Shown: one piece after another, positions 39,401-46,792 of the stretch | Numbering within the stretch: position 1 is the stretch's first letter | Layout of the letters: the number at the start of each line of letters is the position of its first letter | From: a virus | Taxonomy: Duplodnaviria; Caudoviricetes | Virus record (IMG/VR): IMGVR_UViG_3300029288_004944 | Location: 75,458-139,457 of that record | Strand: one strand, 5' to 3' | DNA: 64,000 nucleotides | Program-made: the position numbers and the translations under genes | Notes under the pieces: generated by a model | What the model was told of the DNA's origin: nothing | The model's input: only the letters and a program-made list of their open reading frames with translations | The model's database searches: none

Positions 39401-39590
39401 TCACTTTTTTATACCCCTGTTTCTCGTAAAACTCTTTCGGCAACAGTTTGATAAGTTCGTTGTCAAGAGAATGGTCGGCGATGGCCTGTTTTAATCGCTC
39501 TTCAATATTAATTTCCATTTGTTTGTCCTCAATTTGCCAATAGTCTAAATTAATTGCTTCAAGAAAACTTTTCTGCTCAACCTCTTTCAT
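36480..39590 (-). CDS. run of small hypothetical ORFs (36480..36908, 37212..37418, 37776..38123, 38272..38469, 38481..38918, 38893..39087, 39103..39297, 39297..39590 and shorter ones)
   Basis: co-oriented, mostly with GGAG-type RBS; no recognisable motifs. Confidence 0.6.
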
Positions 39591-40537
39591 TTTGCCTCCC
39601 CTAAATATACTATACTCCCCTTTTCTAACTTAATCTCCTCGTCTCCACGACTAACGATTATCTCATTGTCCTTATTTTTCTCACTTATCTCATAGGCCAC
39701 GACATCGCGTTTCTGAGATATTTTCGGCGTATTCTTTGCCTCTTCCATAAAAGAAAAACTTTCCTGATTACATCTATTTCTCGCCCTCTCACAGTATTGC
39801 TCAGAAATGTCAATACCAACATAATTTCGTTTTAGATCTTTGGCCACTTTGCACGTCGTGCCTGTACCGGAAAACGGATCCAAAACCGTGTTGCCCTGAT
39901 AAGAGTAGAACTTCAGTAATCTTCTTGGTAATTCCTCCGGAAATGGAGCAGGATGACTCCTGTCGGATTCTGTCATAAAATACCAAGCGTTCTTACTCCA
40001 AACCATAAACTCTTCCTTGGTTATATCAATTTTATCTTTATTCCCCACCAATGAAGGATTGTCTTTATATGCCACAATTATATATTCAATAAATGACCTC
40101 ATATAAGGATTAGACGGCGATAAAAATGATCCCCACGCTGTAGATCCCATACAAAATATGCTCATTGTTTCATCCGTTGCTTTTATCCAAGTCACAATTT
40201 CTCTTATCGTAAATCCTGCTTTACTTAAACAATTAATATAATCCGGCAAAAAAGGCAAATATTTCTGAGATTTTGGAGTATTTGGATTATTCCCAAGAAC
40301 AGGTATATTAATTGCAATACGACCACCATCTACTAATACCCTATAAGATTGCGTTATCCATTCCTGAGTAAACTTCCAATATTCATCATACGCCATATTG
40401 TCATCCCATGTTGAGCCATAGTCCTTTCCAACATTATAAGGTGGGCTCGTTATAACCATTTCAACGCTATTCTCAGGCATCTTAGCCATTATCTCACGAC
40501 AGTCACCCAAATGTATCTTATTAATAAATTCATTCAT
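39587..40537 (-). CDS. N4-C/N6-A DNA methyltransferase (beta class)
   Basis: [22 protein letters not shown]; start MNEF. Confidence 0.93.
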
Positions 40538-40925
40538 TATTTTTCCCCTTAAAATAGTCTTCAAGAATTTGTCTATGATCAAAAGCGATAGCCATTGGTA
40601 AATCATCTTTTCCAAAAACACTTATACTGCCGGCATCATCTCCTGCATTCAATTTTCCCACTCCCTTGGCTGTAAATACAACCGTAATGGTGTGCCCTCT
40701 CGGATCTCTATTAAGATCTGAATAAACATGAAATTGCCTTAAATCTTTAAGTTCAAGACATGTTTCTTCTTTCATTTCTCTAATTGCCGTTTCTTCTACG
40801 CTTTCACCGTACTCAACAAACCCTCCGGGAATAGCCCAACCATAAGGAGGATTTTTTCTTTCTATAAGAATAATGCCTTTGGGCATTTCAATAATCACAT
40901 CACTTGTAATACTTATATGTTTCAT
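40530..40925 (-). CDS. Nudix hydrolase, ADP-ribose pyrophosphatase-like
   Basis: [23 protein letters not shown] Nudix box, RDPR, AGDDA, AFDH. Confidence 0.9.
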
Positions 40926-42737: not shown

Positions 42738-43319
42738 CTAATCTCTATACAATTGTTCACAATCTATGTGTAATTCAACCATCGCAGGAACTAATTCCTT
42801 TATTTCAAGTCCATCCCTTATTCTATCACGGATCATTGTTGATGATATATCTATTTCTTTAATTCTTGAAAAAATAATATTACCAATACTCTCATATGGA
42901 AAATCCCCTAAAATAAATTTAGGTCTATTAAATACCACAAATTGACATTCTTTCAACAAATCTTTATAGTCTTTCCATTTAGGTATGCCAATCAAAGAAT
43001 CAGATCCTGCAATAAAATATATGTCGGCCTTTGTCTTTCTCTTAAAATATCGCACAATATCAATAGTATATGACTTTCCCTTTCTTTTCGATTCAATATC
43101 CGAAACCGAAAAATCAGGATGGCCAAAAATCGCAAGTGAAACCATTTTATATCTATGAGAAAATGATACGATAGGGAGAGATTTGAAATGAGGAATAAAA
43201 GAAGGAATAAATATAACTTTATTTAAATGAAGTCTTTCCATTGCTATCTTTGCTATTTCCATATGCCCATTATGTATAGGATTGAACGTTCCCCCAAATA
43301 AACCAATTCTTTCCTTCAT
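42738..43319 (-). CDS. nadD: nicotinate-nucleotide adenylyltransferase
   Basis: GGTFNPIHNGH, SYTID, FIAGSD, W, ISSTMIR. Confidence 0.95.
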   Translation of the reverse strand: MKERIGLFGGTFNPIHNGHMEIAKIAMERLHLNKVIFIPSFIPHFKSLPIVSFSHRYKMVSLAIFGHPDFSVSDIESKRKGKSYTIDIVRYFKRKTKADIYFIAGSDSLIGIPKWKDYKDLLKECQFVVFNRPKFILGDFPYESIGNIIFSRIKEIDISSTMIRDRIRDGLEIKELVPAMVELHIDCEQLYRD

Positions 43320-43346
43320 TCTAAACTCCCCCTGTAATATTTAAGT

Positions 43347-43455
43347 TGGACCCGGCAGGACTCGAACCTACGTCTTTTGGAGACATACAGAAAATTGTGC
43401 ACATTCTCAGTATATCTTTATTCCAGTTATGGCTTTGCCAATCGCCCACAGGCCC
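43347..43455 (-). ncRNA. tRNA-like RNA with Ala identity (G3-U70, A73); anticodon arm replaced by a long hairpin; resembles tmRNA tRNA-like domain
   Basis: acceptor GGGCCTG/CGGGTCC-A; T arm GTAGG-TTCGAGT-CCTGC; D-like GGC-GATTGGCAAA-GCC; CCA not encoded. Confidence 0.75.
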
Positions 43456-43460
43456 ATCAA

Positions 43461-43898
43461 CTACCATTGCACCAAATCTTCATCACGATTTTCTAATCTC
43501 TTAATTAAATCCTTTATATAGCCTTGAACGATCATAGATGCACCCTTTTCTCTTTCTTTTAAAATAGAACCATTGCCTACAGATTCTTTTTCAACTTTTA
43601 AATCGTTTTTCAATCCTTTTATTAAATGATCCAATTCCATGCTCATATTACCCCCTACTTTTCTAATATTTTAAGTACTATAAATAATCTTCCACTATTA
43701 ATACATTATTGCATTACATGATATCTTCATCCTACTTTTTTCATCTCTCTGTACTGCCACTGTATTACCATTAATCCAAACAAATTGTTTAACACCATCT
43801 TGATAACTTCTCTCAAGTCCAAATTCGCATATTTTAGCAAAAACTTGTAGTATTTCGCTCTTTGTTGCCAATCTCATTCTACCTTTTATTTCGCCCAT
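43461..43898 (-). CDS. two small hypothetical ORFs (43461..43646, 43698..43898)
   Basis: GGGGG RBSs; directly downstream of promoter. Confidence 0.65.
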
Positions 43899-43941: not shown

Positions 43942-43970
43942 ATTATAACATACTTTTAATCTAAAGTCAA
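43942..43970 (-). promoter_or_regulatory. sigma70/sigmaA promoter with conserved leader
   Basis: TTGACT-17-TATAAT, extended -10 TG. Confidence 0.88.
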
Positions 43971-43986: not shown

Positions 43987-45525
43987 TTAAAATAATTCCA
44001 TTTGATCACTACTTTTTTCCCTTTTATCACCTTTGATCACTTTTTTACTTTTTGATTCAACTTTCACTACTCCTTTTTGTCTATTGTTTTGAACATCTGA
44101 CCAATATTTCAATCTTGCTTCGGAAATTTTACAATACTCTTTCTCTTTCTCTATTGCAATATACTTTCTACCCAAGTTCCCACATGCTATTGCCGTAGTT
44201 CCAGATCCTGAAAAAAGATCAATTACTATTCCATTTTTAGAACAAACCAAATTAACAAGATACTCCATTAATGCTATCGGCTTCACACACGGATGAATGT
44301 TCTTTGCTTTTAGAGCATTTATATTATTATCCATGGTTCTTTTTTCTACCGAACATTTTCTACCAATACCCCCTGAATTTAATTCAGATTTCCTTAAAGG
44401 AAGTTCTTCTAATCCCTCATTTTTTTCACGCACACCTGCTTTTGCACAATAAAAAAATCTGGAAGCACCCCCAATATCTCCGTATGTTTCCATTAAATAT
44501 TGATTATTAAACTTTCCATATATACCATGAGGACTTTGATACTTACCCATAGTTTTATCTCTTTTATGTAAGTTAGGAGACATATATCCACTTTTCAATA
44601 TACCTGTTTGAATATCTAATTCTTTACCTGCTTCCTCATCAAAAATTATATTAGAAGGAAAACGACCTTCATTCGAACTTAATACATTTTTTGCACATAT
44701 ATCTCCATGCGAAGGTTTATTTGTATTATAATTTCCTCCCCTTATATCTGTTTGAGTGCCAAATCTTGCACTTTCTTTATCCTCTTCATTTTTATATCCT
44801 ATTCTTGTCCCATCAATATTAATTCCACCCGTACCCCATTTCAAAACATTAAGAGCAACAGTATTCTCTGACAAAGGCTTTCGAGCAACCACGATGGGCT
44901 CACATGCAGGTTTAAGAGCAGTTCCCCATCCTTCCCATTCGGAATTACCTTTATCTTTTATTCTGTTTGTTTTGAAAATTCCATAATCAACAGTATCATA
45001 TTTTTCTTTATTGTTATGCCTCTCATTTCCATCTGGTGCTATATAATTTCCAACAATCTCTCTATTGTTCCCCTGTAATTTATCAATCGCCTTTCCTATA
45101 TTCAAACTTTTTGGAAATCCTTGCGAATATATCCACATCATACAATCTCTTATTTCAAAACCGGCATCCTCAATCCCACATATCAACCTATGATGTGTCC
45201 TCGTACCACCAAAAGCAAGTAAAAAAGCACCTGGTTTTAAAATTCTCAACAATTCATTACCCCACTCCTGACACCATTGTTGATAATTGTGCATATCTGA
45301 TTTAAAAAATCTTGGCAAGATTTTAAAATTTTTCTTCACTTTTAAATCATTATCACCTTCTTCCCCTGCTCTACCAAATCTATCAAAACTATCCCATTCT
45401 TTACCCATAAATTCTAATCCGTATGGAGGATCTGTAATACAAGCGTCAATACTATTATCAGGTAATGTTTTCATAATTTCTATATTATCACCACATATAA
45501 CCTCCCCTATAGGCAAATTACTCAT
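43987..45525 (-). CDS. N6-adenine DNA methyltransferase (phage type, beta class)
   Basis: TDPPY, GWGTALKPA.EP, ASRFFYCAKA, HPCVKP, DLFSGSGTT; start MSNLP. Confidence 0.93.
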   Translation of the reverse strand: MSNLPIGEVICGDNIEIMKTLPDNSIDACITDPPYGLEFMGKEWDSFDRFGRAGEEGDNDLKVKKNFKILPRFFKSDMHNYQQWCQEWGNELLRILKPGAFLLAFGGTRTHHRLICGIEDAGFEIRDCMMWIYSQGFPKSLNIGKAIDKLQGNNREIVGNYIAPDGNERHNNKEKYDTVDYGIFKTNRIKDKGNSEWEGWGTALKPACEPIVVARKPLSENTVALNVLKWGTGGINIDGTRIGYKNEEDKESARFGTQTDIRGGNYNTNKPSHGDICAKNVLSSNEGRFPSNIIFDEEAGKELDIQTGILKSGYMSPNLHKRDKTMGKYQSPHGIYGKFNNQYLMETYGDIGGASRFFYCAKAGVREKNEGLEELPLRKSELNSGGIGRKCSVEKRTMDNNINALKAKNIHPCVKPIALMEYLVNLVCSKNGIVIDLFSGSGTTAIACGNLGRKYIAIEKEKEYCKISEARLKYWSDVQNNRQKGVVKVESKSKKVIKGDKREKSSDQMELF

Positions 45526-46792
45526 TGTCAATAGCCTCCTCTTTCTTGTTAAACTCCAAAGCAAGAGACTTCGCATCCCTTATTGTTTCTCCCATATCCA
45601 TATATGCCCACGATCCATACCTACCTTTACTGTATATGTTTTTAGACATCAAGTATTCCTGAATTATATCCACTCGTTTTTTCCATCCCTTATCAAAAAT
45701 TGTATATGCCGGATTCAAATAATCAACTATCGGCAATACAACATTATTGCCATCTATCTCCAACGATTCAAGCATATTCACATCCGATACTAATCCCAAC
45801 TTCTTATCCTTGTACATTGATATCTCAAAGGATACGACATCGTAATTATCAGGACAGGTAAACGTTGAAAAAGACTTCATAAAATATGCTCTCATAAAGG
45901 GCATTTTAGGATCAGATGCATAGATCCAATGCGTATTCAATGGACTATTGTTCTTTGTTTTATAAATAAATGATAAAACATACATTGATGTATATTTCAA
46001 ATTCTTTGCTGCCGATTTAACTTTATAGGGAGCATTCTTAATATATTTTACCATATGGTGCAAAGGAATACTTGACACTATGGTTTCCCATTTTTCTTCA
46101 ACACCATTCATTTTTATGATCTTTTTATCTACATCAATATACTCTATATTACAATTCAACAAACAATTATCTCTCTTTATTGTTTCAGCAATCTTATTTA
46201 CAACCATTCCTGCCCCGCCCATTTGCGGATAATAAAATGAATCATTATACCCTTTACTCCCGGACTCGGCTATCCTATTAGATTTTATTAACTCAATCTT
46301 TGTGTCAGGAAATCTCCAATATTTCTTGTTATATGGCGTAAAAAAATATTTCATCATTGCATTGCCGAACTTGCTTCGCATTGATCTACCTATACTTGAT
46401 TCATCAAATCCTGATTTATTCCCTTTCTTTTGTGCCTTCAAGAAATCTTTTTCACACTCTCCTGCCACTTTCTTATTTAAATGTTTATAATTGGTCTGAA
46501 AGGGATAATCAATAACTTCCGGCTTATTAAATCCTTTACCTGAATTATATATTCTTGCATGCCTTTCCTGCTTTATTAAATTACAACCCAATCCATTAAG
46601 CCAAGCAATATCATCCTCTTTCAATGAGTGAAAAATATGCCCGGCCCTGTCAATTACAATGCGATATCCGACTCCAACCGATCTGCAATAACCGCCAATA
46701 TAAGGATCTCTTTCGATGATCCTATACTCTTTGCCTTTTAAAAAATGAGCAAAAGTTAAACCATAAAGTCCGCCACCAATTACGTGTATCAT
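45518..46792 (-). CDS. FAD-dependent oxidoreductase, UDP-galactopyranose mutase/HemY-like
   Basis: IGGGLYGL, GGYCRS, GHIFH, PYN.K.W, F.YP..GG, GRYGSW.Y. Confidence 0.82.
   Translation of the reverse strand: MIHVIGGGLYGLTFAHFLKGKEYRIIERDPYIGGYCRSVGVGYRIVIDRAGHIFHSLKEDDIAWLNGLGCNLIKQERHARIYNSGKGFNKPEVIDYPFQTNYKHLNKKVAGECEKDFLKAQKKGNKSGFDESSIGRSMRSKFGNAMMKYFFTPYNKKYWRFPDTKIELIKSNRIAESGSKGYNDSFYYPQMGGAGMVVNKIAETIKRDNCLLNCNIEYIDVDKKIIKMNGVEEKWETIVSSIPLHHMVKYIKNAPYKVKSAAKNLKYTSMYVLSFIYKTKNNSPLNTHWIYASDPKMPFMRAYFMKSFSTFTCPDNYDVVSFEISMYKDKKLGLVSDVNMLESLEIDGNNVVLPIVDYLNPAYTIFDKGWKKRVDIIQEYLMSKNIYSKGRYGSWAYMDMGETIRDAKSLALEFNKKEEAIDNE

Follow-up and report, generated by a model that had tools for sequence, protein, structure and literature searches.

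An alanine-like, tRNA-shaped phage gene with a long rod in place of the anticodon arm

What is made from a gene that has the whole upper half of a transfer RNA (tRNA) and no anticodon arm of the usual kind? This question is raised by an element of 109 nucleotides (nt) at positions 43347-43455 of a 64,000-nt stretch (hereafter the window), which is part of the 139,457-bp IMG/VR virus record IMGVR_UViG_3300029288_004944 (CheckV completeness 45%). Read on the minus strand, the element runs from 43455 (5') to 43347 (3') and just precedes nadD, the gene of a nicotinate-nucleotide adenylyltransferase. An earlier note on this DNA had described a tRNA-like RNA of alanine identity at this place and had proposed a tag-less transfer-messenger RNA (tmRNA), a decoy or a tRNA with an unusual intron. 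The analyses reported here indicate that the best explanation, which we hold with moderate confidence, is a phage gene for a tRNA-derived, non-decoding RNA that has the design of RNA1 of phage T5 and is cut from an operon transcript.

The tRNA model of Rfam (RF00005) matched the element with 34.5 bits, for a gathering score of 29, and all 71 model positions (1-71) were covered, with the discriminator A at 43347. The E-value was 0.0019 when the window was searched with all Rfam families and 9.5e-7 when the tRNA model alone was run on the 139-kb record, in which this is the sole match to that model. Two further matches of the tRNA clan were obtained at the same site, both scoring below the tRNA model. 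In the alignment, 52 nt stand in place of the 15-nt anticodon-arm core, and a 5-bp anticodon stem with a 7-nt loop (U33, purine 37), beginning one base past the D stem, is not found. Of the programs named in the earlier note, Infernal with the Rfam models thus gave a match over the full length, and ARAGORN called neither a tRNA nor a tmRNA, whether introns were allowed or not. The fold of the whole element is more stable than that of shuffled sequences (z = -2.31), and the GC content peaks at 0.45 over the element, with values of 0.27-0.35 in the flanks and of 0.33 for the genome.

The upper half of the element is intact and is that of a type-I, alanine-like tRNA. The acceptor stem is formed by the 5' strand GGGCCUG (43449-43455, minus strand as for all parts below; G3 at 43453) and the 3' strand CGGGUCC (43348-43354), which pair at 7/7 positions, including G3-U70 and U6-G67, and the 3' strand is followed by the discriminator A73, so that this side occupies 43347-43354. 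CCA is not encoded, the bases after A73 being ACU. Both the D arm, GGC-G AUUGGCAA A-GCC (43431-43446), and the T arm, GUAGG-UUCGAGU-CCUGC (43355-43371), were aligned to the tRNA model with a posterior probability of ca. 1, and the same alignment places the variable loop AAGAC (G46, C48) at 43372-43376. The D stem has three pairs plus G13.A22, and U8, A14, G18 and G19 are all present. The 7-bp acceptor stem with G3-U70 and A73 and the D-like hairpin of the earlier note were thereby recovered; the GAC that precedes the T arm, which had been read as a mark of tmRNA, is real as sequence, as is the T arm, but corresponds to the ordinary variable-loop positions G46-N47-C48. When 262 phage tRNAs were ranked by the likeness of their cores to that of the element, a tRNA-Ala(GGC) came out on top, but the list was mixed and does not point to a single isotype of origin.

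Below this half, ca. 45 nt replace the 7-nt anticodon loop and lengthen the anticodon stem to a rod of 17 bp (43377-43426). From its base, the rod consists of four pairs (UGGA/UCCA), a 5-nt bulge AUAAA on the 5' side, seven pairs (GAUAUAC/GUAUGUC), a U.U mismatch and six pairs (GAGAAU/AUUUUC), and the only 7-nt loop (GUGCACA) caps the 17 pairs. The loop lies within the palindrome UGUGCACA (43396-43403, read from the sequence), contains the self-complementary GUGCAC and shows the words UGC and GCA. Taken alone, the rod has a minimum free energy of -14.6 kcal/mol (z = -3.83), with 2 of 200 shuffles equally stable, and its pairs are also recovered when the whole element is folded. Helices and palindromic tip agree with the earlier description. 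The absence of a canonical anticodon arm, claimed there as well, holds good, yet the base of the rod (CUGGA/UCCAA) occupies the anticodon-stem position on its 3' side; on its 5' side it is separated from the D stem by 4 nt (AUAA) instead of 1. Because the match to the model is of full length, the arms are intact, the rod is of such stability and the GC content rises over it, the element is real and no chance likeness, and the earlier claim of a 109-nt tRNA-like RNA on this site is sustained by an end-to-end alignment.

Stable, non-decoding RNAs of tRNA shape, such as T5 RNA1 and species 1 of phage T4, have been known for decades, and we know of no function that has been established for them or for the 'enigmatic' tRNA genes of huge phages. 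T5 RNA1 (NC_005859, 30501-30644) is annotated as 'tRNA-like stable RNA with unknown functions'. Like the element, it is encoded by a phage and aligns with the complete tRNA model of Rfam through its acceptor, D and T arms, and its anticodon stem is kept while 47 nt replace the 7-nt loop and can be paired by eye as a helical extension. It differs in having a type-II body with a long variable arm, a length of 144 nt, a score of 24 bits (below the Rfam cut-off) and a location in a tRNA cluster, whereas the element has a type-I body and an Ala-type acceptor; in sequence, the two are not similar. The kind is defined by design and not by homology, and two of its marks, intact aligned arms and an insert that extends the stem, are found in the element. 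For T5 RNA2 (L149:2660-2784), which is annotated as 'tRNA-like stable RNA', no match to any Rfam family was obtained at E up to 1. The T4 species 1 and 2 RNAs (rnaC and rnaD; NC_000866, 70908-71171) are likewise small stable phage RNAs located beside tRNA genes, with their function unexplained, and rnaC has a good T arm and an acceptor-like stem at its 3' end; as a whole it resembles tRNA only faintly (17.5 bits and E = 0.5 with the tRNA-Sec model), and a D arm or the rod layout could not be recognised. No anticodon-less tRNA decoy of a phage was found described in the literature searched.

The same layout also occurs in uncultured phages. A pattern composed of the GGGC...GUCCA acceptor end, U8, A14, GG, 55-85 nt and the T loop was found at 34 IMG/VR loci, with ca. 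0.2 expected by chance (a rough estimate that assumes ca. 6e10 bases). Eight of them are artefacts in which an ordinary tRNA stands behind a chance 5' match, while the other 26, a number that includes duplicates, are tRNA-shaped genes of excess length, most of which received from ARAGORN either an anticodon at odds with the Ala-type acceptor or no call. Rod-like inserts in the anticodon region are also seen in loci L120, L135, L137 and L138. The first of these (L120:2161-2263), in the complete 323-kb phage IMGVR_UViG_3300029935_000001 with direct terminal repeats, is a tRNA-Ala(UGC) in which an insert of 30 nt and the anticodon together make up an unbroken rod that lacks a bulge-helix-bulge motif. 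It shares with the element the GGGC...GUCCA end with G3-U70 and A73 and a layout in which the D arm is followed by the rod, a variable loop of 5 nt and the T arm; a covariance model built on the element spans its whole rod with 41.9 bits. In contrast to the element, it carries U33-U34-G35-C36 at the base of the rod, so that removal of 30 nt gives a canonical tRNA-Ala(UGC), and it belongs to a 12-tRNA cluster with a bacterial-type tRNA-Tyr of 86 nt and no other tRNA-Ala; the terminases of the two phages are unrelated. Another locus, L119, in a 144-kb record that looks like an archaeal virus, also has an insert pairing with the anticodon region into a long rod, but with a bulge-helix-bulge motif (two 3-nt bulges 4 bp apart) from which it splices to tRNA-Ala(UGC). 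The element has instead a single 5-nt bulge and seven uninterrupted pairs, and the marks of its phage (sigma-70 promoter, bacterial-type nadD, terminase nearest to that of Bacillus phage G) are bacterial. Finally, Devoto et al. (bioRxiv 10.1101/356790) have reported conserved 'enigmatic' tRNA introns in Lak megaphages and suggested that such introns may be widespread among large phages. These too are oversized tRNA genes of huge bacterial phages that were seen as pseudo-tRNAs of excessive length, with a removal route left unexplained; once the Lak inserts, which are conserved from cohort to cohort, are removed, a typed tRNA complete with anticodon reportedly remains, whereas excision gives no credible tRNA from the element, for which no relative was found.

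On high-GC phage contigs, genes of 96-120 nt and of tRNA shape were observed at L121:4954-5073, L126:1422-1541 and L143:11233-11352 (identical to one another), L123:5645-5742, L132:2253-2353 and L136:621-716. In these six loci the D loop seems to accommodate an additional hairpin, frequently built around GGUGGCCACC, and almost nothing separates the D and T arms; even with introns allowed, ARAGORN made no call for L121/L126/L143, L123 and L136, and for L132 it gave a poor Arg-UCG with a 5-nt intron.

In the course of events that we propose, the RNA of the element would be part of the operon transcript begun at the 43970->43942 promoter, host RNase P would cut at G43455, 3' processing would take place next to A43347, and the host CCA-adding enzyme would complete the end. 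RNase P, the 3'-processing enzymes, the CCA-adding enzyme and alanyl-tRNA synthetase (AlaRS) need the acceptor/T-arm half of a tRNA, and AlaRS needs of it only G3-U70; excision and CCA completion are expected since this half is intact in the element. The matured RNA would persist as a stable L-shape whose long arm could not present an anticodon to the ribosome, and its excision would also part the message of the small upstream open reading frame (ORF) from that of nadD. The presence of all bases that make the T-loop/D-loop contacts, together with the full-length match above the model's cut-off, supports this explanation. More speculatively, AlaRS could charge the RNA at its acceptor end through G3-U70, and the element might be a mimic that occupies a host protein reading tRNA shape, such as an anticodon nuclease, a modification enzyme or a synthetase. 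As to the binding partner, the most attractive idea would be that the RNA baits a host nuclease or other enzyme directed at tRNA. Since the loop shows words of tRNA-Ala and tRNA-Cys (U-G-UGC-A-C and GCA) together with GUGCAC, a bait for an anticodon-loop nuclease or a tRNA-sensing defence, or a kissing dimer, can be envisaged. The most elaborate version, to which we attach a small probability, is a purpose-built, alanine-accepting mimic that would be matured by RNase P and CCA addition, charged by AlaRS and kept off the ribosome by its 17-bp arm, with the loop acting as bait or in a kissing dimer and with release tied through nadD to the NAD-rebuilding genes of the phage.

Relatives of the element were sought in several ways. 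No hit was obtained when 43300-43700 was compared by blastn with 50,697 phage records, and searching IMG/VR with patterns for either arm (D or T) or for the layout as a whole, in exact and in degenerate form, gave nothing or only chance matches in coding sequence. Nor does the 139-kb record contain a second copy. In GTDB genomes, the layout pattern met one Woesearchaeota tRNA with an intron and one chance match. The covariance model of the element retrieved only ordinary tRNAs from 44 records with related terminases; two of its three best matches were tRNA-Ala(UGC) with the common GGGC...GUCCA acceptor end, and the best 150 matches of the tRNA model in 21 huge-phage records were all ordinary tRNAs. 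Scanning 20 of 37 nadD loci, those with the closest nadD matches, showed only ordinary tRNAs nearby. The lineage of the phage is barely sampled, the nearest terminase in IMG/VR being 43% identical, and nadD relatives in that database, which come from very distant huge phages, are at most 39% identical; the closest nadD of all (P0002) is 77% identical and lies on a JGI contig of 1,004 nt.

Two observations were made on the loci met in these searches. In a metagenome-assembled genome of Candidatus Woesearchaeota (JAFGRK010000004.1), L052:345-445 is a tRNA-shaped gene of 101 nt that starts with GGGCCUGUGG as does the element; its extra sequence seems to begin in or just past the D arm, it scores below the Rfam tRNA cut-off, and next to it Rfam finds a tRNA with a 32-nt intron. 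In the 545-kb record IMGVR_UViG_3300037484_000435, a HEARO RNA (RF02033, 127.5 bits) was detected at L009:1274-1483, ca. 1.5 kb upstream of a nadD homologue.

Several of these results weigh against a functional RNA of the T5 RNA1 design. No homologue of the element was retrieved that could show covariation or selection, and no RNA run is listed as containing this stretch. The element stands alone in an mRNA operon, unlike T5 RNA1 in its tRNA cluster, and the class of oversized genes probably includes true tRNAs, since L120 resolves to a normal tRNA-Ala(UGC) once 30 nt are taken out. A single transition separates G3-U70 from the A3-U70 found in phage genes for tRNA-Met/Ile(CAU); as the 3' half of these genes is nearly identical to that of the element, G3-U70 may be an accident. 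Minor flaws, namely the 3-nt surplus between D stem and rod, the U15/C48 pair and the D stem of 3 bp, would fit decay equally well.

Decay is at the heart of one alternative, in which the element is the dead relic of a phage tRNA gene of Ala or Met/Ile type whose anticodon loop was destroyed by an inserted palindromic sequence, and which survives either because the event is recent or only for useful RNase P or RNase Z cuts in the operon transcript. Unlikely as it seems, this origin carries some weight because relatives are lacking everywhere searched, the record itself included, and because of several small flaws: the surplus AUAA linker, U15/C48 and two acceptor G-U pairs are non-canonical, and the Rfam score of 34.5 bits compares with 55-73 bits for ordinary phage tRNAs. 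The rod is also AT-rich as is the phage genome, although it keeps 17 of 18 pairs at the z-score given above. It is further difficult to reconcile with decay that the conserved elbow bases are all intact and that 12/12 acceptor and T-stem pairs are retained in a genome of 33% GC, that useless DNA should be lost since the genome is tightly packed, and that the analogous T5 RNAs accumulate as stable RNAs according to the annotation of their record. The element could also be a true tRNA with an insert of the 'enigmatic intron' type, the rod being removed at the RNA level to leave a decoding tRNA. We regard this as doubtful and grant it what likelihood it has mainly on account of L120, where the model of the element aligns across the rod-forming insert of a tRNA-Ala(UGC), and of the report on Lak introns. 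Two routes were considered. A single excision (A41..U73) would leave the loop AUAAAGC with the anticodon AAA, whereas removal of both rod strands would give AUUGCAC, which is a flawless loop for tRNA-Ala(UGC). U-G-UGC-A-C stands at the tip of the rod, and the loop of Escherichia coli tRNA-Ala(UGC), UUUGCAC, agrees with it in six of seven bases. However, all loops that a single excision between CUGGA and UCCAA can produce carry A34, as worked out by hand, and apart from Arg-ACG we know of no such bacterial tRNA with A34. The only excisions that yield U33 and a purine at 37 give the anticodon AAA, in conflict with the Ala-type acceptor, and the UGC route would require the RNA to be cut four times and ligated twice on either side of an exon of 5 nt, for which no mechanism is known. 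ARAGORN in intron mode found nothing at the element, the rod has no bulge-helix-bulge motif, and RtcB, a ligase of the Rnl1 or Rnl2 type (Rnl1 having been searched for without a positive control) and RNase III were not found in the 139-kb fragment, which is ca. 45% of the genome. When every stretch of 5-59 nt was deleted in turn and the resulting 3,575 variants were each run through ARAGORN, all calls were poor: Ile-AAU with G33, Cys-GCA of at least 87 nt with an unpaired 19-nt variable region, and a few others. A canonical tRNA left after removal of an intron had been named as the result that would speak against the element as described, and none that is credible emerged from these single deletions. 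Two known kinds of intron were tried and rejected. In the bulge-helix-bulge intron, two 3-nt bulges lie on opposite strands 4 bp apart; the element shows one 5-nt bulge on the 5' side, seven pairs and a 1x1 mismatch, and alternative pairings did not produce the motif. A group I ribozyme has a core of about 200 nt or more; the insert is of only ca. 40 nt and matches no intron model of Rfam. The unusual intron of the earlier note is thus not supported in any known form.

The other two alternatives are far less probable. A tag-less mini-tmRNA, charged with alanine, bound by SmpB and entering stalled ribosomes, was among the proposals of the earlier note, and tmRNA and SmpB are known from huge phages. 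With the tRNA-like domain of tmRNA the element shares the alanine-type acceptor with G3-U70 and A73, the T arm and a long helix at the position of the anticodon arm. A tmRNA, which depends on SmpB, further combines a frame that encodes the tag with pseudoknots and a D region without a stem. The element is built otherwise: a stem is present in its D arm, and the element, of 109 nt in total, has neither a resume codon nor a tag frame nor a pseudoknot, its interior being one hairpin, which bears out the remark that there is no room for a tag frame. Moreover, none of the tmRNA families in Rfam scored higher here than the tRNA model, ARAGORN called no tmRNA even with a lowered threshold, the GAC is accounted for by the variable loop, and SmpB (PF01668) was not found in the 139-kb fragment with its ca. 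45% of the genome, although the host may supply one. The mini-tmRNA must accordingly be considered very improbable. The same grade of improbability is given to a gene for a 48-aa protein (43467->43321, minus strand) that would bridge the neighbouring genes, the likeness to tRNA being incidental. This frame was listed by a gene caller, is open from an ATG overlapping the upstream stop codon to a stop 1 nt before the ATG of nadD, and has a weakly positive codon score (0.13 bits per codon). That score is nevertheless lower than those of all neighbours (0.22-0.53), the GC content of 0.44 departs from their 0.30-0.33, and the strong Shine-Dalgarno sequence of GGGGG type seen at the neighbours is missing. 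No relative of the 48-aa product was found among 5.8 billion proteins, nor any Pfam family, and the E-value of the tRNA model over the record also argues against it, so that the gap is probably not a protein gene.

The element is an orphan addition to the known, unexplained oversized tRNA look-alikes of phages. Its novelty is reduced by the fact that the design is already known from T5 RNA1, the Lak 'introns' and many uncultured phages, and a copy without relatives adds one more example and not an explanation. Being small, clean and simple, with one hairpin on a type-I alanine-like body, it is a convenient object on which RNase P, CCA addition, AlaRS, splicing and defence nucleases can be tested. 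If such RNAs are decoys or non-ribosomal carriers of amino acids, they would represent a new layer in the conflict of phage and host over tRNAs; if they are spliced, a tRNA-splicing route not yet described in bacteria or their phages would be implied. The tRNA-Ala(UGC) of L120 is a good candidate for learning how phages of bacteria handle such inserts.

The surroundings of the element indicate that it is transcribed within an mRNA operon and not in a tRNA cluster, since it is wedged between a 61-aa ORF and nadD with spacers of 5 and 27 nt and so fills the 141-nt gap that separates them. The ORF (43461-43646, minus strand) ends with its stop 5 nt before the element and has a codon score of 0.53 bits per codon; it matched no Pfam family. 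The start of nadD (42738-43319, minus strand; homologues in PF01467), whose ATG lies 27 nt past the element, is preceded by the Shine-Dalgarno sequence GGGGGAG. A promoter-like site, TTGACT-17-TGnTATAAT (43942-43970, minus strand), matches the sigma-70 consensus at 11 of 12 positions and has the TG of an extended -10 element; by this consensus match it is the likely start of the transcript, as the earlier note had suggested for a promoter at 43942. One site on the plus strand also reaches 11/12, and only 43970->43942 has the TG. The proteins encoded next to the element include nothing related to tRNA, and neither a CCA-adding enzyme nor FemAB was detected in the fragment.

The phage is estimated to have a genome of about 300 kb, given that CheckV rates the 139,457-bp record as 45% complete, and a 216.8-kb contig of the same phage occurs in the source run, a landfill metagenome. 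In a DNA run that is probably that of the source sample, contigs show no variant within the element. The long genes of the fragment are all on one strand, and the portal and the large terminase are present. The portal had no relative by exact-word search. For the terminase, the nearest sequences are a partial one of 398 aa on a 2.2-kb contig (58% identity) and that of the nearest IMG/VR record cited above, and the nearest isolate is Bacillus phage G (34%). The host is probably bacterial, as suggested by the sigma-70 promoter with its extended -10 and by a bacterial-type nadD with relatives in, for example, Omnitrophota. The closest cellular relatives of this gene are from uncultured bacteria, with 53-54% identity, the named matches being Omnitrophota with 46-47%, which hints at the host lineage or at the donor of the gene. 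Relatives of nadD in metagenomes lie in bacterial proA-nadD operons; one of them (L047:1156-1752) has a bacterial-looking context, with a long ORF directly upstream that was read by eye as proA.

Two further features of the phage were noted. The apical palindrome of the rod contains GTGCAC, a word resembling a restriction site, and the locus is flanked by two genes resembling DNA methyltransferases, at 43987-45576 (N6_N4_Mtase, 1.5e-35) and 39587-40621, both on the minus strand. Outside the window, G000:C1:38473-41880 (L050:473-3880, minus strand) encodes a protein of 1,135 aa with a 2H phosphoesterase domain (Pfam 2_5_RNA_ligase2, 1.8e-12; Acb1 anti-CBASS, 7.5e-9); its role may be to break down cyclic nucleotides that signal defence, or it may work on RNA ends as a cyclic phosphodiesterase.

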